Assembly: GCA_036351155.1 (NCBI GenBank)
Contig: JAZBOO010000284.1
Coordinates: 1 to 55,834, forward strand
Direction of reading: 5' to 3'
DNA length: 55,834 nucleotides
DNA from: Candidatus Krumholzibacteriia bacterium
Lineage (GTDB): Bacteria > Krumholzibacteriota > Krumholzibacteriia > LZORAL124-64-63
In this document: positions 14,581 to 31,550 of the stretch, piece after piece
Numbering within the stretch: position 1 is the stretch's first letter
Layout of the letters: each line of letters opens with the position of its first letter
Notes under the pieces: generated by a model
What the model was told of the DNA's origin: nothing
The model's database searches: none
The model's input: only the letters and a program-made list of their open reading frames with translations
Made by a program: the position numbers and the translations under genes

Positions 14581-16104
14581 TCAATTCTCGACCCCGCGTA
14601 CGCGGGGGGTGACCGTGACGTAGCTTTCCGTGCCCCCTGTCTTCAACAGGATGGACAGGGGATCTCGACGGGCAGCCATCAGATCCCGGACCTGGCCGAA
14701 AGACTCCAGATCCGTGATCTCGTGGCCGTCCACGGAAATCAACACGTCACCCGGGCGGATACCGGCTTCCGCTGCGGGTTGGTCTTCTTGCACGCCGACC
14801 ACCATCACTCCGGTGGCCGCCGTGACTCCCAGGACCTCCTTGAGCCGGGCGACCCGCGGGTCACCATCGGCCAGGGAGGCCACATCCATACCGAGCCACA
14901 GTCCCGCAACCTGTGCGGACACACCGGGCTCGTTTTCTATCCACTCCACCGGACGGACACGCAAACCTTCGCGCTGACCGTTCCGGATAATAGCCACTTC
15001 GACCTCCTGGCCAGGCGACACGCCCGCCACCAGGAATTGCAATTTGCGCCGGGAATCCACTTCCTGCCCGGCAAAGTCCACGATGATGTCGCCGGGCAAC
15101 AACCCTCCGGCGGCGGCCGGCGAGTCGGGCAGAACGGACAGCACCCGGGCCCCCTGGTCGGGTTCCCCGGTGGTTTCCTCGCCCACGATCTGCACGATGT
15201 CCTCGGTGGTGGCGCCCAGGTAACCGCGGATCACCCGTCCATGCTCCTTCAGTTGCCCGTACACCGACTGCACCAGGTTGCTGGGCACGGCGAACCCGAT
15301 GCCCTGTCCTTGCGCATTGATGGCCGTGTTGATCCCGATGACCCGGCCCTGGGTATCCACCAGGGGACCGCCGCTGTTGCCGAAGTTGATGGAGGCATCG
15401 GTCTGAATGAAGTCCTGATAGCGGGGCGACTGCCCACCGATCTGCAGATCGCCACGGCCCTTGGCGCTCACCACACCCACCGTCAGTGAGCTTTCCAGGG
15501 TGCCGAAGGGGTTGCCCACGGCCACGGCCCAGGACCCCACCTGAACCAGGTCGGAATCGGCAAAGCGCAGGGGCTCGAGATCGCGCCCCCGGGGATCGAT
15601 ACTGATCAACGCCAGGTCGGTGTTCGGGTCGGTGCCCACCAGCTTGGCCCGGTATTCCCGTTTTTCGCCGCTGAAGCGGACGAAGATGGCCTCGGCCTGG
15701 TCGATGACATGATTGTTGGTCAGGATATCACCGGAATCGGACACGATGAATCCGGATCCGGTGGAAGGCATTTCGAAGCGTCCGCCCTTGCCCTCTTCCT
15801 GGGGGAAGAACTGGTCGAACATTTCCTGCAGAGGGCTGGTGCCCACCCCGGCCTGGGTCACCGAACGGGTGATCCGGATGTTGACCACCGAAGGCCGCAC
15901 AATGCGGCTGACGTCGATGAAGGGCGAGGCATCGGGGGCAGCCACGGCCGGGCGGGTGCCGACCGTCAGAGCCGCGAGGCCCAGGAGCAGCAGCAGGGAA
16001 ACCACAAACAAAAGACGCGTCCATCGGCTGCTCTGGTCAGTCCTGACCTGAACAACGGATACACCGCGCCTGCGCATAGTTTGGTTTTTCTGGTGCAGCT
16101 TCAC
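14581..16104 (-). CDS. Do/DegQ (HtrA) family serine endoprotease with two PDZ domains
   Basis: Catalytic motifs TNNHV, DLAL and INFGNSGGPL. The start lies downstream of the promoter at 16213-16241 (GTG 16104 or ATG 16077). Confidence 0.92.
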   Translation of the reverse strand: MKLHQKNQTMRRRGVSVVQVRTDQSSRWTRLLFVVSLLLLLGLAALTVGTRPAVAAPDASPFIDVSRIVRPSVVNIRITRSVTQAGVGTSPLQEMFDQFFPQEEGKGGRFEMPSTGSGFIVSDSGDILTNNHVIDQAEAIFVRFSGEKREYRAKLVGTDPNTDLALISIDPRGRDLEPLRFADSDLVQVGSWAVAVGNPFGTLESSLTVGVVSAKGRGDLQIGGQSPRYQDFIQTDASINFGNSGGPLVDTQGRVIGINTAINAQGQGIGFAVPSNLVQSVYGQLKEHGRVIRGYLGATTEDIVQIVGEETTGEPDQGARVLSVLPDSPAAAGGLLPGDIIVDFAGQEVDSRRKLQFLVAGVSPGQEVEVAIIRNGQREGLRVRPVEWIENEPGVSAQVAGLWLGMDVASLADGDPRVARLKEVLGVTAATGVMVVGVQEDQPAAEAGIRPGDVLISVDGHEITDLESFGQVRDLMAARRDPLSILLKTGGTESYVTVTPRVRGVEN

Positions 16105-16212
16105 GTTTTCACCGTCCAGCGAGATGGATTTCGGTGAAGGAGTGAGCCGCTTCCCGGGAATCCACGTGATGGGGATCAAGAGGAATCCCGAGGCATTACA
16201 GGGAACAGCTAA

Positions 16213-16241
16213 ATCGTACTCCCAATGAGAACCTTTGTCAA
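16213..16241 (-). promoter_or_regulatory. sigma70 promoter of the htrA-sigma operon
   Basis: TTGACA-N17-TACGAT on the minus strand. Confidence 0.7.
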
Positions 16242-16298
16242 CAGACAATGGCGGACAAAAATTGCCCGCCATTATGCGGCCGGATCCGCAGAAAAGGT

Positions 16299-17722: not shown

Positions 17723-18664
17723 TTACCAGACCATGGACAAGCTGAACTTGTGGCCGTCGTCGAACCCGTCGACCTTGGAGTTCTGGTACGCGTAGTCCAG
17801 AGCCATGTTGGGCAGGGGCTTGAAGCCCGCACCGGCCGTCCAGCCCAGCAGGTCGTAGTTGACCCGGGTGCCGCCGCGCAAGGTCAGTTCCGGCAGCAGC
17901 TCCAGTTCGGCTCCGAAGTGGCCCTTTTCCTTGGTGTCGTTGGGGAACGAGATATCGCCGGCCACGGTCAAACGGCCCATGAGTCCCTCACCCACCGGAC
18001 TGTAGGACGCCCCCACCCGGTAGGCCGTGGGCATGGGATAGGGCACGGTGTACAGGTTCATGTCGGAGCCCATGTTGGTGGCCGAGGCCCCGAAGGTCAG
18101 TCCTTCGATCATGGCCTGGTGGCTCAGAAAAAAGTCGAAGGCCAGGCCCGTGTCGGAGTAGATGTCGATCTCGGAATGGATCATCTTGGCCGTCAGACCC
18201 ACCCCGAGGCGCTCACCAATGGCTCGGGCGTAGGACAGGCCGAAGCTGATGTCGTAGGGTTTGAAGGTGCCCTCCACCAGCCCCACGTTCTCTTCACTGC
18301 GCCGGTCAATGGAATCCCAGTAGAGGCCCGAGAACATGAATCCCACCACACCCCCGGCCATCCGGTGGGCCACAGCGGCGGCTTCCTGGTTGGCCGCGCC
18401 CAGGTACCGGTGGTGCTGAAGCACCAGATCGGTCTGGAAATCGGCAAACACGTTGTTGGCCGGGTTCCAGTACAGGGCCGACGCCCCCTGGCTGCTGGCC
18501 ACACCGGCCTCGCCCATGGCGGCTTCCCTTGCCCCCACGCCCAGCCTCAGGAACAGTCCGCCCGACTCGCCGGGACTTCCGGCCCAGGCCGGCACCGAGG
18601 CCAGCACGGTGATCAGGGCCGCGACCAGAAAGATCACTTGGGTATTTTTGCTCAGGCGACGCAT
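17723..18664 (-). CDS. PorV/PorQ family outer-membrane beta-barrel
   Basis: Signal peptide, FLRLGVGAREAAMGEA, ALYWNPA, LDYAY and a C-terminal aromatic residue (W). Confidence 0.85.
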   Translation of the reverse strand: MRRLSKNTQVIFLVAALITVLASVPAWAGSPGESGGLFLRLGVGAREAAMGEAGVASSQGASALYWNPANNVFADFQTDLVLQHHRYLGAANQEAAAVAHRMAGGVVGFMFSGLYWDSIDRRSEENVGLVEGTFKPYDISFGLSYARAIGERLGVGLTAKMIHSEIDIYSDTGLAFDFFLSHQAMIEGLTFGASATNMGSDMNLYTVPYPMPTAYRVGASYSPVGEGLMGRLTVAGDISFPNDTKEKGHFGAELELLPELTLRGGTRVNYDLLGWTAGAGFKPLPNMALDYAYQNSKVDGFDDGHKFSLSMVW

Positions 18665-18759
18665 GGAATCCCTTTCTTCATTGTCCGGTTTGGGCCCCAC
18701 CTCACAGGTGTGGCCCGCTTCAATATGGTTGCGGCATGGCCGGCGGGTAAAGGTGAACT

Positions 18760-24546: not shown

Positions 24547-25575
24547 TCAAAAACTGATCGTCATGGGCTTGAGATCATGAGTCGCGGGCTTCTCCGGAAC
24601 GGAAAGTTCGGGCAGACCGGCAATGGTCTGGTAAGCCCAGATGATCCCCACGGAATTGCTGGTGATGGCCGTCACTCCGAACTTGGCGTAATGGATACCG
24701 GCGATCGGGTCGTCAATTCTCAGGACATAGATATGTCCGATGATGAGTTCCATGGTCCCGGTGGACGAGTAGCCACCGGCCGGGGCATAGGACACGCCCT
24801 CGAAGATCAGGTAATTTTCACTGTCCAGGAAGACGCCGAAATCCTGGATTTCCACACCGAGGTGATTGGTCTGGACGTAGGGGACGTTACCCTGGAAAGC
24901 AATGCGGATGTCTGCGGTGTTCCCGGGGGCCGTGGGATCAACCCGTCCGTCTTGCAGACGGCTGAAATCCCATCCGGCCAGTGCGGGGTTCACGTTGACA
25001 TCGAAGACTTCGGTGGCGTCCAGATTCATGGGCAACGGCGCATCGATGACGAACTCGTAGCTGAGTGCGCTTTCACGCCCCGCTTCGTTCACAGCCGTGA
25101 CGGCATACTCGTACTCCTCGCCATTGACGGCGAGGTCATCGTAGAAAAAATGAAGACCGGAACTGGAGTCGAAATTCTCATCCCAGGCCACCTCGCCGAT
25201 GTAGGAGAACTCGCGATCGGGAATGTCCTCATCGCCCGGCGTGTAATAACGGCTGTAAACATAGTAGGCCACCACGTTGGGGTTGTAGCGGCCGTCATAA
25301 GGATGATAGGACAGGTCGTACCACTGAACAATCACCAGGTTGTCCCCGCTGATACTGTGGACCCCGGTGGGCACCACGGGCGAGGGCAATTCGATGCAGT
25401 TGACGCAATCATCGGATTCACAACCGCTCAGCAAACCCAGCAGTAAAAAGATGCTAAGGGCCAGAAGGGTTCCACGGACCCTGAAAATCCGTGGATTGCG
25501 GGTATGGGCGCGACGGCCATGCCGTCCGGCAAAGAACTGATCCACCACTTTTCTTTGGCCTGAAAATTTGCTCAT
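24547..25575 (-). CDS. Lipoprotein with FN3-like domain and possible HmuY-like C-terminal domain
   Basis: GGAGG RBS; lipobox LLSGC; FN3-like PTGVHSISGDNLVIVQW...YEYAVTAVNEAGRES; C-terminal HYAKF...WAYQ. Confidence 0.7.
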   Translation of the reverse strand: MSKFSGQRKVVDQFFAGRHGRRAHTRNPRIFRVRGTLLALSIFLLLGLLSGCESDDCVNCIELPSPVVPTGVHSISGDNLVIVQWYDLSYHPYDGRYNPNVVAYYVYSRYYTPGDEDIPDREFSYIGEVAWDENFDSSSGLHFFYDDLAVNGEEYEYAVTAVNEAGRESALSYEFVIDAPLPMNLDATEVFDVNVNPALAGWDFSRLQDGRVDPTAPGNTADIRIAFQGNVPYVQTNHLGVEIQDFGVFLDSENYLIFEGVSYAPAGGYSSTGTMELIIGHIYVLRIDDPIAGIHYAKFGVTAITSNSVGIIWAYQTIAGLPELSVPEKPATHDLKPMTISF

Positions 25576-25651: not shown

Positions 25652-25667
25652 GGCAGACTTCGTGCCA
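25652..25667 (-). promoter_or_regulatory. sigma54 (-24/-12) promoter of the lipoprotein-DUF4384 operon
   Basis: TGGCACGAAGTCTGCC versus consensus TGGCACG-N4-TTGC; exact GG-N10-GC spacing, ~77 bp upstream of the ATG. Confidence 0.8.
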
Positions 25668-25947
25668 GGAGGGTGGCAATTGTTCAGGGAAGTTACATCA
25701 GGAAAAATGGAGTGAGGGCCGGAGGGAAAAAGCGGGCAACCAGAATACACATTTCTTTATTTTACAACGTCTTGACAAAATCCAAGAAAGCTCAGCCATC
25801 GCTGAAGATGATCCATCTGGGACGAACCAGGTCCCCCGCGATCGGGACAACGGTCCCACCGGACCAGCTCCTGCTGATCGCTAACTGGGACACCATCTCC
25901 AAAAAAGGACACAATGGGAGGGAGAAAGAAGGTTATCGGTAGGCATG

Positions 25948-26018
25948 AAAAAAGAGCCCCGCCTTGCGGCTACCCGTTCTTGAATCTCGCCTTTTCAAGA
26001 ACAGAAGGGCTCTTTATT
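25948..26018 (-). terminator. Three-way-junction RNA element ending in a U-run (terminator-like)
   Basis: Outer stem AAAGAGCCC/GGGCTCTTT; inner stems GTTCTTGAA/TTCAAGAAC and GCC-GCAA-GGC; ends in a run of six U on the minus strand. Confidence 0.7.
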
Positions 26019-26258
26019 TCGAGGATCCGGTGATCAGATCCAGATTTTATTCGTGTTTCGGGAGAAAGGTCCCGAGTTCTCTCTCATCGGCCGAGAATAA
26101 TTGTTAAGACCCCACCTCTTCACAATCATCCAGCCGACACTTCTTGATGAGAACTTCCTCTTCGCCGGTAAGCAGTTGAGGAAAAAAACCTCGACTCTCC
26201 CGAAAACACGAAACTCGTTCAACTTGGAAGAGGATCCCTGTAACTCACCCCTTCAACA
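25948..26258 (-). ncRNA. Candidate sigma54-dependent structured RNA (~310 nt), possibly also encoding a 17-31 aa peptide
   Basis: Bounded by the sigma54 promoter (26269-26284) and the terminator-like element; long-range inverted repeat 26050-26065/26196-26212. Confidence 0.55.
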
Positions 26259-26268
26259 CACGGCATAT

Positions 26269-26284
26269 TGCACGACGCATACCA
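26269..26284 (-). promoter_or_regulatory. sigma54 (-24/-12) promoter directly downstream of the TPR activator gene
   Basis: TGGTATGCGTCGTGCA on the minus strand; GG-N10-GC spacing; AT-rich upstream region. Confidence 0.6.
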
Positions 26285-26516
26285 GAAACCCTCTTTTGCC
26301 AATAAATGTTAAGTCTTATGTTGACAACATGTTACGAGGAACGGGACACCTCTTGATTCCACTGCACGGCAGAGGGTTATTAAATGTTTTTATAGTTTTT
26401 CAGGCAAAAAAATAACCCGTTGCCAAACAACGAGTTAAGGTATAAAAAAAAAGACCAGCCCAACCGAAGAATGCCCTTCAAATTAACAGTTCAGGCACCC
26501 GGAATGAGCCGGGACC

Positions 26517-29500
26517 TCAAGAAGCAATGCCGTAATGCTTGATCTTCTTGAGCAGGTTGGGGTAGCTGACCTTGAGCAGACGGGCTGCGGCGGACTTGTT
26601 CCCCGCGGACACCTTCAGGGCGCGCTCGATCTCCCGGCATTCGATCCCCGCCAGGGTCTCCTTCAGCGGGACCACTCGACCACTTTCCGATGATTCGGGC
26701 GCGGAATGGAACTGGGTGAACTCCCGGGGCAGGTGCTGCGGTCTCAACACACCATCGCCCTGGGCCAGAACGATGGCCCGCTTCAACGTTTTCTCCAGCT
26801 CGCGAATATTCCCGGGCCAGGAGTGGTGCACCAGCAGGTCCATGAACACCCGATCCAGCGCCAGAGGAGCCGTGCCGAGTTCCTGGCAGAATCGCTGGCT
26901 GAAGTGCCGAGTCAGCAACTCCACGTCGTCGGCCCGTTCACGCAGCGGTGGAATGGTCAGGGGGAAGTCCACGAGGCGATAGTAAAGATCCTCGAGGAAC
27001 CCACCGGTCCGGGAGCGCGCATGAAGATCGGTCTTGGAGGCGGCCACGATGCGGACATCGACCTTGGTTTCCCTGTTGCTGCCCACCGGGCGCACCGACT
27101 TGGTGTCCAGAAAATGCAGGAGCTTGCCCTGCATGGCCAGCGGCATCTTGCCGATCTCATCCAGGAACAGGGTTCCACCCTGAGCCTGGACCAGCAGCCC
27201 CTTCTTGTCGTTGTCGGCGCCGGTGAAGGCACCCTTGACGTGCCCGAACAGCTCACTTTCGAGGAGACTGTCAGGAATGGCCGCACAGTTGATGGACAGG
27301 AATTCCTTGTCCGCCCGCTTGCTCAAGGCATGAATGGAGTAGGCCAGCAGCCCCTTGCCGGTGCCCGTTTCCCCGTTCAGCAGGACGGTCAAGTCGCTGG
27401 GCGCCACTTTCTGGGCCAGAGCCAGAACTTCCAGCATTTTGCTGTTCTGGGTGATGATGTTCTCGAAGCTTTCAATGCGCTCGATGGGGGTGGAAACAGC
27501 AGAACCCCCGGAAGACCGCCCCTTCTCGAAAAGGAACAGGGCCAGGAACCCCATGTAAGTGGCCAGGAAGTCCAGGGCCGCACGGTCAAAACCGCCCTTG
27601 CCCCGTTCCGCCGCAGCCTTGCCCAGGAAAAGCAACCCGAATTGCCGCCCGTGCAGCGCGATGGGCATGAACACGCAGCTGGCGGCAACCGACCCCAGGG
27701 CGGGCACTTTCTCAAGAAGGTCATCGTGCTCGGCCAGTCGGGAGAACAGGGTGGTTCCGCTCCGCCGTCCACTGGCCAGCTCGGCATCGAACCAGCGGGT
27801 CAATTGCTGGGCCAGGTTGTCGGTCAAGCCACGGCGCGCGGTGATCCGCAAGCCGGCTCCCGGCACCTGATCGTCCAGCATCGCAATGAATCCGTGGTCG
27901 GCCTGCACCCTCTCCAGCCCGGCATCGAGGATGGTTTCCAGGTTGCGGGGAACCGAAGTGTCGGTGCGGGCAAATAGCCCCGGCAAGCCGGAAATGGCCT
28001 GCAGGTGGCTTTCCGCGCTACCCACTCCGGTCAAGAGGCCGGACTCGATCATGTCCCGCAGCCGCACCACCTGGAGGCTGAGTTTCTCGTCATCCAGGCC
28101 GGTGGCGTGGCGTTCGAACTCGAACACGGTCAACAGGGCATCGTCGAACTGCCGCAGGTGAACCTGGATATGGGCCAGCTGATCCAGTACCCGGCACAGC
28201 ATGTGGTCGCTGACCTGGTTGGCCCCACTCTCCTGGGCATCCATCAGGTAACGGCGCAGAAGCAGCAGCAGACCCTCATCGGCGGTTTCGCGCCGGATAT
28301 CGGCGTAGCGGATGATGGTCTGGCACCAGAGGTGGTTCAAGCGCTGTTCGGAAAAGGTGGCGATGGCTTCGCGGAAGTGGTGGTCCACCTGCTGCAGATC
28401 ATTCTGGGCGGCATAGGCCCGACCCAGCACACTGTGACAGAAGCCCAGCTCGTAGAGCTCACCGCATTGTTCACAGACCGCGATGGCCGCCTGGCTGACA
28501 GCCACGGCATCTTCCAGCTCGCCGGCCGCCAGATGGGCCTCGCCAATGCGGCGCAGCAACTCACCCTCGAGATCGTTGCCCACGGCAATGCGGCGGCTCT
28601 TGTCCAGACCCAGCTGGTAATTGAACTGGGCCTTCTCGACCTGCCCCCGGGACAGCAGAATATCGCCCAGGTACTCGTCACAGATGGTGGCTTCCCGCAG
28701 GTACTGGTATTCCTCGGACAGGGTCTTGGCCGCCAGAACCAGCTCTTCGGCCCGAGCCAGTCGTCCCGACTGGATTTCCAGCCGCCCCATGGCCAGGCTC
28801 AGGCGGGCCTGATGCTGGACATCGCCCAGAGACTGGGCCAGCCGCAAACCTTTTTCCAGGTAGGGCCGGGCCTCTCCCAGGCGTTCGATCTTGGTCAGGA
28901 TGATCCCCTGATTCAGGTAGAAACGGGGCAGCAAATGGCTGGCACCGATCTGCTCGGCCAGGCTGAGGGCCTTGTCCATGAGGGACTGAGCCTGATCCCA
29001 GTGGCAACGGTTCTTGTGCAGGAGGGCCAGGTTGTTCAGCAGGTTGGCCACACCCAGGTCGTTGCCGATCCGGCGAAAGGTGGCCAGGCTGTCGCTGTAG
29101 AATTCTTCAGCTTTTTCCATCCGTCCCAGACGATAGTGGACAATGCCCATGCCTGCCTGGAGTCGGGCCACATCGGCGTGTTCGTCGGTCAGGGCCAGAA
29201 CGGAAAAAGCGGACTTGGAAACCTGGAGCGAGTCCTGGAGCTGGCCGCGCTCGCGGTGGACCACCGCTTGCCGCACCTGAAAAACGGCCTTCTGCACGGT
29301 CATTTCGGGCCCGGCGCCGGCGTCGGCGCTGGCACGGATCAGATCCAGGGCCTCGTTGATCAGATGCTGAACCTGGTGGTAATCGCCGAGAAGGATGTTG
29401 GTGTCGGTGGCCTTGCGCAGAACATTCAAAGCCCGATCGAGCGGCAATTGCACCAGAATCTGGTCATCCAGCAGCTGACGGTAGTAGTCGAGAGCCGACG

Positions 29501-29630
29501 AATAGGCCGAGGCGTGGAAATGCAAGTCTCCCACTTCCTCGAGTCGGGCCCAGTCCACCTGACGGGCAGAAGCCTCCATCGGGTGTTGTTCGGGGTCAAA
29601 CCTGTGATTTCCGTCCTGGTACTCTCGCAT
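26517..29630 (-). CDS. sigma54 enhancer-binding protein with long TPR array, GAF-like domain, AAA+ domain and Fis-type HTH
   Basis: TPR-like helices (e.g. [22 protein letters not shown]); [37 protein letters not shown] and [10 protein letters not shown]. Confidence 0.93.
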
Positions 29631-29683
29631 CAACCGTATCCCTTGGCGAGTCAGTGGATCGGTGACAGTTTTTTTGCTGCCTC

Positions 29684-29705
29684 AAGGGCCGCCAGAGCGG
29701 CCCTT
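29684..29705. other. GC-rich hairpin at the 3' end of the small secreted protein gene
   Basis: AAGGGCCGC-CAGA-GCGGCCCTT; no U-run follows on the coding strand. Confidence 0.6.
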
Positions 29706-30039
29706 AGGGCATCAGCATGAACTGCAACATCTTCAGGTAGATGAATTGTGAGAAATCCATCGTGTCGTCATCACCCAGGAATCCGCCAAACAGATTGAAC
29801 AGATCGGATTCGCCGGCGCGCGCGCCGTATCCGCCGCCCACACTGTCGGGATCGCCTTCACCACCGTCGGTGGGCCCACCCAGACTGTCGCTGACATCAT
29901 CCTCGGTGTTCTGATACACCGTGGTTCCGTCTTCCAGTGTGGGAAGGCCTGCTAACGACGCGTGAATGGGCTGGGCCGAAACGACGGTCAGCAGCACGAG
30001 TGCCACCAACATGATCGTTCCCTGCATAACCCTCGTCAT
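29704..30039 (-). CDS. Small (111 aa) secreted acidic Gly/Asp-rich protein with hydrophobic C-terminus
   Basis: AAGGAG RBS before ATG 30039; signal peptide MTRVMQGTIMLVALVLLTVVSAQPIHA; core GGEGDPDSVGGGYG; tail FSQFIYLKMLQFMLMP. Confidence 0.75.
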   Translation of the reverse strand: MTRVMQGTIMLVALVLLTVVSAQPIHASLAGLPTLEDGTTVYQNTEDDVSDSLGGPTDGGEGDPDSVGGGYGARAGESDLFNLFGGFLGDDDTMDFSQFIYLKMLQFMLMP

Positions 30040-30185
30040 TTTGCTCTCCTTCACGGACTGCACCCCGTCTTGCCTTTTTTTGAAAACCCGCGCGCCTCCA
30101 TGCCCGAGCCGCGTCAGATCGTAAGTTCCCCTTTGAACCCTATATTTAAGGATGCTCTCAAGTCTGGTCAAGCCTTTTGGCCCGG

Positions 30186-31550
30186 TCAATCCTCGTTTCC
30201 TGGCTGGGTTCGCAGTCCGTACTTGGTGATTTTCTTGTACAGGTTACTGCGCTGCATCCCCAGCTTTTCTGCCGTCTTGCTCACATTATAGAGGTTTTCT
30301 TTCAACTTGTGTTGCAGAAAAGCAGTTTCACTCTCCGATTTGAAATCCTGGAAATCCCGGCAGGCGAAAAAGGACGGCTGCTGGGACACGGCGCTGGCGG
30401 CCCCTGGCAAAAGAGGCAGATCCGCCGGTTTGACCACGTCGCCAGGACACAGAATCAGCAGTCTTTCCACCAGGTTACGCAATTCACGAACATTTCCCGG
30501 CCAGGAGTATTCTCGCAAAATGGCCATGGTTTCCGCAGAAAAAGTACGGGGTGGGGAATTGAGCTTGACCCCGAGATCGGCCATGAACCAGTCCAGGAGC
30601 AATTCCACATCGCCGGGGCGTTCCCGCAGGGGCGGCAAATGGACAGACAGGACGTTCAGGCGGAAAAAGAGATCCTGGCGGAATCCCGACTCAGGGGCCG
30701 AAAGATCCCGGTTTGTGGCCGCCACGATGCGGACATCGACCTCCCGGGTCTCGCTGCCGCCCACCCGCTGGAAGCGGTTTTCTTCCACCGCCTTGAGAAC
30801 CTTGGCCTGGGCTTCGGGATTCATGTCGCCGATTTCATCCAGAAACAGCGTGCCGCCATCGGCCTGCTCGAATTTCCCCACCCGCTGACGATCGGCACCG
30901 GTGAAGCTCCCCCGCTCGTGCCCGAACAACTCGCTTTCCACCAGTTCGTGGGGGATGGCGGCGCAGTTGACCTCGACCAGGGGTCGGTCGGCCCGACGGC
31001 TGGCCTGGTGAATGGACCCCACCACCAGTTCCTTGCCCGTCCCGTTCTCGCCCGTCACCAGGATGGTGCCATCGCTGGCCGCCACCTTCTCGATGAACTG
31101 ACGCACCTGCTGCATGGGAGGACTTTGCCCGACGAGGGGGCTGGCGATGGCCGTCTGTTCCTGCAAGATGCGCCGATCCGAGAGAACCTGGAAATGCTCC
31201 AGGCAATTGCGGAGACTGACCAGAAGCCGGGATCGATCCAGGGGCTTCTCCAGATAGTCGTAGGCTCCCTTCTTGACCGCTTCGACAGCGGTTTCGATGG
31301 TGCCGTGCCCCGAGATGACGATCACCGGGACCCGCGGCTTGTCGGGCCCCAGCTTGGCCAGGACCTCGAAACCGTCCATCTGGGGCATCTTGATATCCAG
31401 CAGCATGACATCAGGCTGCTTCTTGTCGACCAGCTCAAGGGCCTCGGCACCTGACCCCGCCTTGAGGACAGCATAGCCCTCGTAGCTCAGGATCTGTTCG
31501 AGGGTCTCCCTGATGGCCAGTTCGTCGTCGACGATGAGTACGGACTTCAC
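30186..31550 (-). CDS. NtrC/NtrX-type sigma54-interacting response regulator
   Basis: Receiver LIVDDE, LLDIKMP and ISGHG; GENGTGKE, GHERGSFTGA, LFLDEIG and C-terminal HTH. Confidence 0.93.
   Translation of the reverse strand: MKSVLIVDDELAIRETLEQILSYEGYAVLKAGSGAEALELVDKKQPDVMLLDIKMPQMDGFEVLAKLGPDKPRVPVIVISGHGTIETAVEAVKKGAYDYLEKPLDRSRLLVSLRNCLEHFQVLSDRRILQEQTAIASPLVGQSPPMQQVRQFIEKVAASDGTILVTGENGTGKELVVGSIHQASRRADRPLVEVNCAAIPHELVESELFGHERGSFTGADRQRVGKFEQADGGTLFLDEIGDMNPEAQAKVLKAVEENRFQRVGGSETREVDVRIVAATNRDLSAPESGFRQDLFFRLNVLSVHLPPLRERPGDVELLLDWFMADLGVKLNSPPRTFSAETMAILREYSWPGNVRELRNLVERLLILCPGDVVKPADLPLLPGAASAVSQQPSFFACRDFQDFKSESETAFLQHKLKENLYNVSKTAEKLGMQRSNLYKKITKYGLRTQPGNED

Follow-up and report, generated by a model that had tools for sequence, protein, structure and literature searches.

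The window analysed here is a stretch of 55,834 nt, positions 1 to 55,834 of the forward strand of contig JAZBOO010000284.1 from a Candidatus Krumholzibacteriia bacterium (assembly GCA_036351155.1). On its minus strand, a non-coding RNA gene of about 310 nt (26257-25948) is located between the gene of a sigma-54 activator with TPR and GAF domains (26517-29633) and an open reading frame (ORF) encoding 342 aa, ORF342. The start of the RNA is predicted from the -12 element of its promoter, and its end is placed at a U-run. An earlier note, made from the sequence without database searches, had proposed a highly structured, unannotated RNA of this length directly 3′ of the activator gene. Pfam confirmed the identity of the activator, and inspection of the sequence recovered every element listed in that note on the minus strand, at the coordinates given below. 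We consider it very probable that a structured non-coding RNA is encoded at the locus by a separate gene that has a sigma-54 promoter of its own (P1), upstream palindromes, a bend site and an intrinsic terminator built as a three-way junction, and that belongs to a conserved gene cassette. The RNA stretch is single-copy in its own genome (4.19 Mb, 97.6% complete). The RNA and its parts are as follows; f1, f2 and so on denote families.

25948-26257, minus strand: non-coding RNA (fold z-score -4.0, covariation, RNA-library contigs over 25974-26240, no Rfam match)
26227-26254, minus strand: 5′ hairpin H1 with loop UGAGUUACAGGGAU (RNAfold minimum-energy structure and RNAalifold consensus)
26046-26214, minus strand: central domain, a long closing helix around a branched core with three further helices (164-bit match to covariance model R1; per-helix covariation)
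26108-26119, minus strand: invariant apical loop AGAGGUGGGGUC of the longest hairpin (GGTGGGGT found in 37 of the 39 homologues from f1 and 10 of the 11 other-family loci)
26023-26041, minus strand: variable small linker hairpin GGAUCUG-AUCA-CCGGAUCC (helices 10-11, paired in about 70% of cells and lacking from some lineages)
25948-26014, minus strand: 3′ domain, a three-way-junction terminator whose outer stem AGAGCCC/GGGCUCU, followed by U6, encloses two hairpins (RNAfold and RNAalifold)

Fold, covariation and homologues of the RNA

The 316-nt segment 25945-26260 was folded by RNAfold to -120.8 kcal/mol, compared with -97.7 ± 5.8 kcal/mol for 100 dinucleotide shuffles, none of which folded as well (z = -4.0). 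The long-range repeat described in the earlier note, 26212-26196 with 26065-26050, forms the closing helix of the central domain, and the nested complementarities GUUCUC/GAGAAC, GUCGGC/GCCGA and CCUC/GAGG are helices in both the minimum-energy structure and the RNAalifold consensus. The proposed U-tailed 3′ element likewise proved to be a stem followed by a U-run, with its end near 25948. This intrinsic terminator (AGAGCCC...GGGCUCU and UUUUUU at 26014-25948) is conserved across the alignments. The first hairpin that it encloses carries the invariant loop GGCGAG (25986-25991), which all 39 f1 homologues and 10 of 11 other-family loci contain. At the 5′ end, 37 of 39 f1 homologues retain the H1 loop motif RYAGGGA, and the diverged other-family RNAs lack H1.

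The helices are supported by covariation. RNAalifold predicted 74 pairs from 14 sequences, 29 of them with compensatory changes. When an 81-pair structure was scored over 39 homologues, 87.7% of the alignment cells were paired, compared with 77.9% for shuffled partners and 38-54% when the partners were slid by 1-3 columns. Changes on both sides were observed in 55 pairs and 317 cells (36.9 and 95, respectively, in the shuffles), a level reached by 0 of 500 shuffles. In helix 13 of the 3′ domain, 10 of 11 pairs were compensatory. Because the sequences are related, these counts overstate independence, yet the slid controls keep the same relatedness and scored far lower. A search of the whole window against Rfam 15 at gathering scores returned no match; at E-values up to 10, the segment 25850-26450 gave seven weak matches, none above 19 bits and none to CsrB, RsmY or RsmZ. 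The RNA is uncatalogued.

BLAST against 60 relatives located the RNA stretch in 23 of the 36 same-family genomes, with all seven of the same genus among them. A profile hidden Markov model showed that the weak BLAST matches were full-length homologues; a match in a family f5 genome (G045) was due to chance (nhmmer E = 0.16). A pattern scan with one genome per GTDB species gave 37 loci, of which 34 were true homologues and three (L040, L043 and L049) chance matches. In total, 39 distinct full-length homologues of 293-390 nt were collected. In their alignments, sequence conservation begins about 12-14 nt 3′ of the -12 GC and ends at the U-run. Record titles of the loci from the pattern scan were mostly those of Candidatus Krumholzibacteriia or Krumholzibacteriota metagenome-assembled genomes, with few bearing another or no taxon label. 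In six records (L033, L037, L039, L041, L051 and L055), the full activator-plus-RNA locus was found under titles naming uncultured Fibrobacteraceae (five records) or Chromatiaceae (a 2-kb contig); these taxon labels may be wrong, or the short contig may have been misbinned.

Covariance model R1 describes the central domain only (169 positions, 50 pairs). With default filters it detected a single copy per genome in 61 of the 151 genomes that were sampled from the phylum, among them 52 of 60 in f1 and 8 of 9 in f6, and none in 81 genomes of seven other families. With the filters off, it matched only a partial hairpin among the other-family loci, in f8 and f4. Homologues of ORF342 were present in 135 of the 151 genomes, and those of the TPR-type activator in all 151. 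When the intergenic regions between these two genes were examined in seven families, two sigma-54 boxes separated by 540-778 nt were observed in 11 of 11 loci, and between the boxes GGTGGGGT and GGCGAG were each present in 10. The RNAs lying between these boxes, together with those of four more f2/f5 loci, were analysed as a set of 13 and had fold z-scores of -2.4 to -7.3. The wider distribution is based on synteny, promoter boxes and loop motifs in 15 loci, not on the covariance model. The RNA family is probably class-wide but diverged, with the two apical loops as its invariant signature: their sequences are unchanged over nine families while the stems covary. The alignment, the covarying structure, the promoter architecture, the distribution and the hint of expression described below suffice to annotate genomes and to set up a curated RNA-family entry.

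Lineages differ in the second of the two hairpins of the 3′ domain. In diverged RNAs of families f2, f3, f7, f8 and f9 (L070-L074, L076, L081 and L083), this hairpin is enlarged, and its conserved loop has CCCCUCC in it, commonly as (U)AUGGACAUCCCCUCCGGU, similar to an anti-Shine-Dalgarno sequence. In f1, a hairpin with a GCAA tetraloop takes its place.

Promoter P1 and transcripts

The following elements were identified upstream of the RNA.

26268-26283, minus strand: promoter P1, a sigma-54-type -24/-12 box TGGTATGCGTCGTGCA with the pattern GG-N10-GC
26308-26334, minus strand: TAAC..TTG...CAA..TTAAC, an A/T-rich inverted repeat that separates motif A from the -24 box (conserved alignment columns)
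26378-26395, minus strand: AT-rich palindrome, motif A (TGTAAA-N5-TTTACA-like; here TATAAAAACATTTAATA), a candidate activator-binding site about 134 nt before the predicted start
26413-26437, minus strand: terminator-like hairpin and T-run that end the activator gene, among the palindromes upstream of P1 (terminator scan; equivalent hairpin in relatives)

The box that the earlier note had taken for a sigma-54 promoter was confirmed at 26283-26268. Its GG-N10-GC pattern is invariant in 23 of 23 aligned homologues, and the box was found in all 39 full-length homologues. Motif A (17 bp) is located at about -134 and/or about -198 in 32 of 39 loci, compared with 0.036 occurrences per locus in shuffled sequences; in the window the distal site is degenerate. 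Motif A was absent from all 38 spacers between the RNA and the second sigma-54 promoter of the locus (P2, described below), and when the pattern is made stricter, its sole occurrence in the genome is the one at P1. The inverted repeat at 26308-26334 presumably resembles the IHF consensus and is a possible IHF-like DNA-bending site. The genome contains rpoN (Sigma54_DBD, 210.7 bits, contig C105), and two genes of bacterial enhancer-binding proteins (bEBPs) lie directly upstream of the RNA. As far as the sequence can tell, the features expected of a sigma-54 promoter are in place, namely the GG/GC box (TGGCAC-N5-TTGCW-like), rpoN with a bEBP, and upstream sites at 80-200 nt with a candidate bend site, and binding at these sites is predicted.

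Transcripts were sought in four metatranscriptome runs from two studies, each of which yielded one contig on the RNA. These contigs cover 25974-26240 (identical in sequence, depth 13.8), 26072-26240, 26071-26240 and, from a relative, 26007-26240. No contig in the four runs covered the 3′ end of the activator gene or the spacer between the RNA and ORF342 within the 1.2-kb stretch searched, and its uncovered parts were not taken as evidence of silence beyond these flanks. In one run (X4), ORF342 was represented by a separate contig ending at 25592, with no cover between it and the RNA.

Several observations weigh against a simple reading of P1 as a sigma-54-dependent start of this RNA. Across the genome, the bare -24/-12 pattern is not enriched (80 matches, about 91 expected), and the box at P1 carries weight because it is conserved rather than because the pattern is enriched. 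The contigs place RNA-library sequence on the stretch, as the earlier note would predict, but give neither its strand nor its true ends. All four stop exactly at 26240, in the H1 loop and 17 nt inside the predicted 5′ end; this shared stop may reflect a processing site, loss of 5′ ends during library making, or an assembly effect. Carry-over of DNA could also be the source of the contigs, an explanation against which the silent flanks argue. Of the earlier claim that the RNA is sigma-54-dependent, the conserved box, the upstream palindromes and the presence of rpoN stand, and from these features dependence of P1 on sigma-54 would be expected.

The activator cassette and the downstream operon

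The neighbouring genes and regulatory elements are listed below.

26517-29633, minus strand: TPR-GAF-AAA+-HTH sigma-54 activator (bEBP) of 1038 aa (Pfam Sigma54_activat 1.1e-64, TPR_12, GAF_2, AAA_lid_14, HTH_8)
30186-31550: second activator gene, an NtrC-type response-regulator bEBP (Pfam; conserved upstream of the TPR-GAF bEBP gene)
25888-25910, minus strand: motif B, GTCCnnTTTTGGrGAnnnTGTCC, a candidate activator site of P2, just 3′ of the RNA terminator
25653-25667, minus strand: promoter P2, a second sigma-54-type box TGGCACGAAGTCTGC before ORF342 (equivalent place in 38 of 38 distinct loci)
24547-25575, minus strand: ORF342, first gene of the downstream operon, with no Pfam family (synteny)
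in the ORF342 operon: ORF629, a DUF4384 protein (Pfam)
in the ORF342 operon, after ORF629: ORF1152, which resembles a T9SS-dependent M6-like inactive metalloprotease (NCBIfam T9SSA_dep_M6i, 174.5 bits, below the cut-off of 600; T9SS, type IX secretion system)
17723-18700, in the ORF342 operon: PorV/PorQ-family gene (NCBIfam PorV_fam, 150.8 bits, above the cut-off of 90)

In f1 the order on one strand is response-regulator bEBP, a gap of about 550 nt, TPR-GAF bEBP, RNA, ORF342, ORF629 and ORF1152, and in each locus long enough to show it, the TPR-GAF bEBP gene lies 5′ of the RNA. With the identities of the genes included, we regard it as highly probable that a cassette of response-regulator bEBP, small ORF, TPR-GAF bEBP and RNA is present in Krumholzibacteria across the whole sample, usually with a second sigma-54 promoter and a T9SS-linked envelope operon behind it. 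Evidence that the RNA is attached to this cassette comes from f2 and f5 genomes in which ORF342 is found on a different contig or at a distance of 7 kb. All four of these genomes retain, 3′ of the TPR-type bEBP gene, a sigma-54 box and then a structured RNA with a terminator, and the response-regulator bEBP is still upstream in the three that were checked for it. The RNA thus keeps its place beside the activator gene even without linkage to ORF342, and belongs to the activator cassette and not to the operon.

Across 29 loci, the gap between the two bEBP genes keeps a length of 521-635 nt. Its sequence in the window (about 29660-30040, minus strand) codes for a small protein whose N-terminus resembles a signal peptide (MTRVMQGTIMLVALVLLTVV...). 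A 161-aa ORF called in this gap had no tblastn match in relatives. We also considered a third sigma-54 promoter between the bEBP genes and rejected it: boxes occurred in 4 of 29 gaps, in scattered places, and the sigma-54-like match at 30005 is not conserved and falls in the stretch coding for the signal peptide.

Downstream of the RNA, the P2 box lies 280-430 nt 3′ of the terminator in all 38 loci. Motif B was present in 24 of 38 spacers, in none of the shuffled sequences, and upstream of P1 in none of 39 loci. In two f5 genomes with unlinked ORF342, there was no sigma-54 box before that gene. Further along the minus strand of the window (14581-16272) is a gene for a Do/HtrA-family serine protease (TIGR02037, 372 bits, just below the cut-off of 416), which fits the envelope-related neighbourhood.

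The earlier note had gone on to call the RNA the primary output of the TPR activator. This claim was not established, as a second bEBP gene adjoins, a second sigma-54 promoter is present, and different motifs precede the two promoters. With two activators and two sigma-54 promoters at the locus, the sequence cannot pair activator with promoter, and either activator might act at P1.

The arrangement can be compared with known systems. In Pseudomonas, CrcZ is reportedly dependent on sigma-54 and CbrB, is encoded just 3′ of cbrB, and is said to be the regulatory output. The present locus is similar in that an NtrC-family activator gene lies directly 5′ of a non-coding RNA of several hundred nucleotides with a predicted sigma-54 promoter and its own terminator. 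CrcZ acts by way of A-rich repeats to which Hfq/Crc bind; in contrast, the loops here are G-rich, Hfq was not found in the genome, and there is no sequence or Rfam similarity to CrcZ. Unlike CbrB, the activator here has TPR-GAF sensory domains rather than a receiver domain. A likeness to luxO-qrr of Vibrio lies in the combination of a bEBP gene with an associated small RNA. One qrr gene is encoded beside luxO, and the Qrr RNAs, of about 100 nt, pair with their targets in an Hfq-dependent manner. The RNA described here is three times larger, shows no homology to the Qrr RNAs, ends in a three-way-junction terminator, and comes from a genome in which no Hfq was detected. According to two reports, small RNAs are activated in Vibrio by the sigma-54 bEBP LuxO (PMC4878744, PMC11407668). 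A further report describes sigma-54 promoters, a dedicated bEBP (GlrR) and palindromic upstream sites of the form TGTC-N10-GACA for GlmY/GlmZ (PMC4987338), features to which the promoter and palindromes of the present locus correspond. There is no homology to GlmY/GlmZ, which are about 150-200 nt long compared with about 310 nt here; the motif here is TGTAAA-N5-TTTACA-like, and both phylum and gene context differ.

Known examples of an activator gene followed by its sigma-54 RNA have so far come from Proteobacteria and Myxococcus. The present locus extends the arrangement to the Fibrobacteres-Chlorobi-Bacteroidetes (FCB) superphylum and to a TPR-GAF sensor. We know of no cultured member of the Krumholzibacteria, and a literature search on sigma-54 or small RNAs in Krumholzibacteriota found nothing relevant.

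Possible modes of action

We tentatively favour a model, possible rather than probable, in which the RNA acts in trans by base pairing and independently of Hfq, with its G-rich loops as seeds. In this model, the RNA would accumulate when one of the two adjacent activators fires, and it would then act on other transcripts without Hfq. The invariant G-rich apical loops (GGUGGGGUC, GGCGAG and, in f1, also ACAGGGA) would pair as seeds with C-rich stretches (ACCCCACC-like) in mRNA leaders beside ribosome-binding sites, and pairing would alter translation or stability of the mRNA. Hfq (PF17209) was not found in the 97.6%-complete genome, which does not prove its absence. To our knowledge, Hfq and ProQ-type chaperones are lacking in the FCB superphylum.

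The genome-wide search for complements of the loops gave mostly noise and a sole lead, on contig C84 of genome G000. There, a 13-bp complement to the GGUGGGGUC loop (P5) lies 27 nt before an ATG, with a duplex energy of about -27 kcal/mol (z = -6). We traced this site in 18 orthologous loci, 12 of which had a credible start, and the 7-nt core (ACCCCAC, CCCCACC or CCCCCAC) was kept in 6 of these 12 leaders. The gene concerned (C84, about 1040-1701; locus L093) encodes a 207-aa secreted Gly-rich protein, and its leader holds CCCCACC twice, once within the 13-bp complement.

Other results count against base pairing. Outside G000, the orthologous leaders had z-scores of +0.8 to -1.5 relative to shuffles, and two non-self exact 11-mer complements were seen genome-wide, compared with an estimated three or so expected by chance; the C84 lead is weak. 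Pairing of the invariant loops with the ORF342 leader was rejected, the mean z-score being about 0 over 37 loci. Moreover, a large folded RNA with several invariant loops is equally consistent with protein binding.

A decoy or scaffold RNA, in which a protein would dock on the loops GGUGGGGUC and GGCGAG, follows directly behind base pairing, and we regard such docking as somewhat unlikely. GlmY, 6S and CrcZ act in this way, by binding proteins and not mRNAs, GlmY as a protein decoy. Protein binding would suit a large, rigid RNA whose apical loops are invariant in sequence over nine families while the stems covary, and also the failure to find either Hfq or a convincing conserved mRNA complement. 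On the other hand, only the two activators and the poorly conserved small ORF travel with the RNA, leaving no other candidate gene for a partner, and CsrA, the one known loop-binding regulator tested, does not co-occur with it. The invariance of the two loops points to a conserved partner, possibly one tied to control of the T9SS-linked envelope operon.

A more specific form of docking, which we consider improbable, would make this phylum-wide single-copy RNA the dedicated product of the TPR-GAF activator, with the loops GGUGGGGUC and AUGGCGAGA forming a bipartite platform for a protein or ribonucleoprotein that controls the T9SS-linked envelope operon. If so, large signal-transducing RNAs of a new class would exist in the FCB superphylum, with a mode of action undescribed for sigma-54-dependent RNAs.

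Instead of an independent gene, the structured element could be a cis-acting, riboswitch-like leader or attenuator of the ORF342 operon, given that it lies on the same strand immediately 5′ of that operon in every f1 locus and that its 3′ element is a terminator and could be regulated. This is very unlikely. ORF342 has a sigma-54 box (38 of 38 loci) and an upstream motif of its own, the terminator stem and U-run are conserved (a competing anti-terminator fold was not looked for), and the RNA is unlinked from ORF342 in 4 of 4 f2/f5 genomes. As a weak hint in the same direction, the RNA and ORF342 were on separate contigs in run X4, with no cover between them.

Titration of CsrA in the manner of CsrB/RsmZ is more improbable still. 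It would account for the H1 loop GUUACAGGGAUC, which we take to resemble the high-affinity CsrA site RUACARGGAUGU, for the retention of RYAGGGA in that loop in 37 of 39 f1 homologues, and for the presence of CsrA in this genome and in 57 of 60 sampled f1 genomes. Like CsrB/RsmZ, the RNA is structured, has a hairpin loop with GGA in it, and comes from a CsrA-encoding genome. However, it has one conserved loop GGA rather than many, and GGA is not enriched, with a median of 9 per RNA (range 5-14) compared with a chance estimate of about 7. Nor does CsrA co-occur with the RNA across families: it was found in 0 of 17 genomes of f4 and 0 of 9 of f8, families with a diverged RNA locus, and was not found in an f6 genome that has the RNA (G046). 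H1 is missing from those other-family RNAs, and the Rfam search up to an E-value of 10 gave no CsrB, RsmY or RsmZ match.

The possibility that the stretch is no RNA gene, and is instead a small protein gene or regulatory DNA, can be practically dismissed: a 62-aa ORF (26034-26222, minus strand) and a 104-aa ORF (26101-26415, plus strand) exist in the window, but neither has a Pfam match, the 62-aa frame within the RNA was rejected as unconserved among the 39 homologues (start codon kept in 2, frame interrupted within 50 codons by a stop in 30, and length no multiple of three in 27), the substitutions in the helices are compensatory, and the RNA-library contigs match the limits of the RNA.

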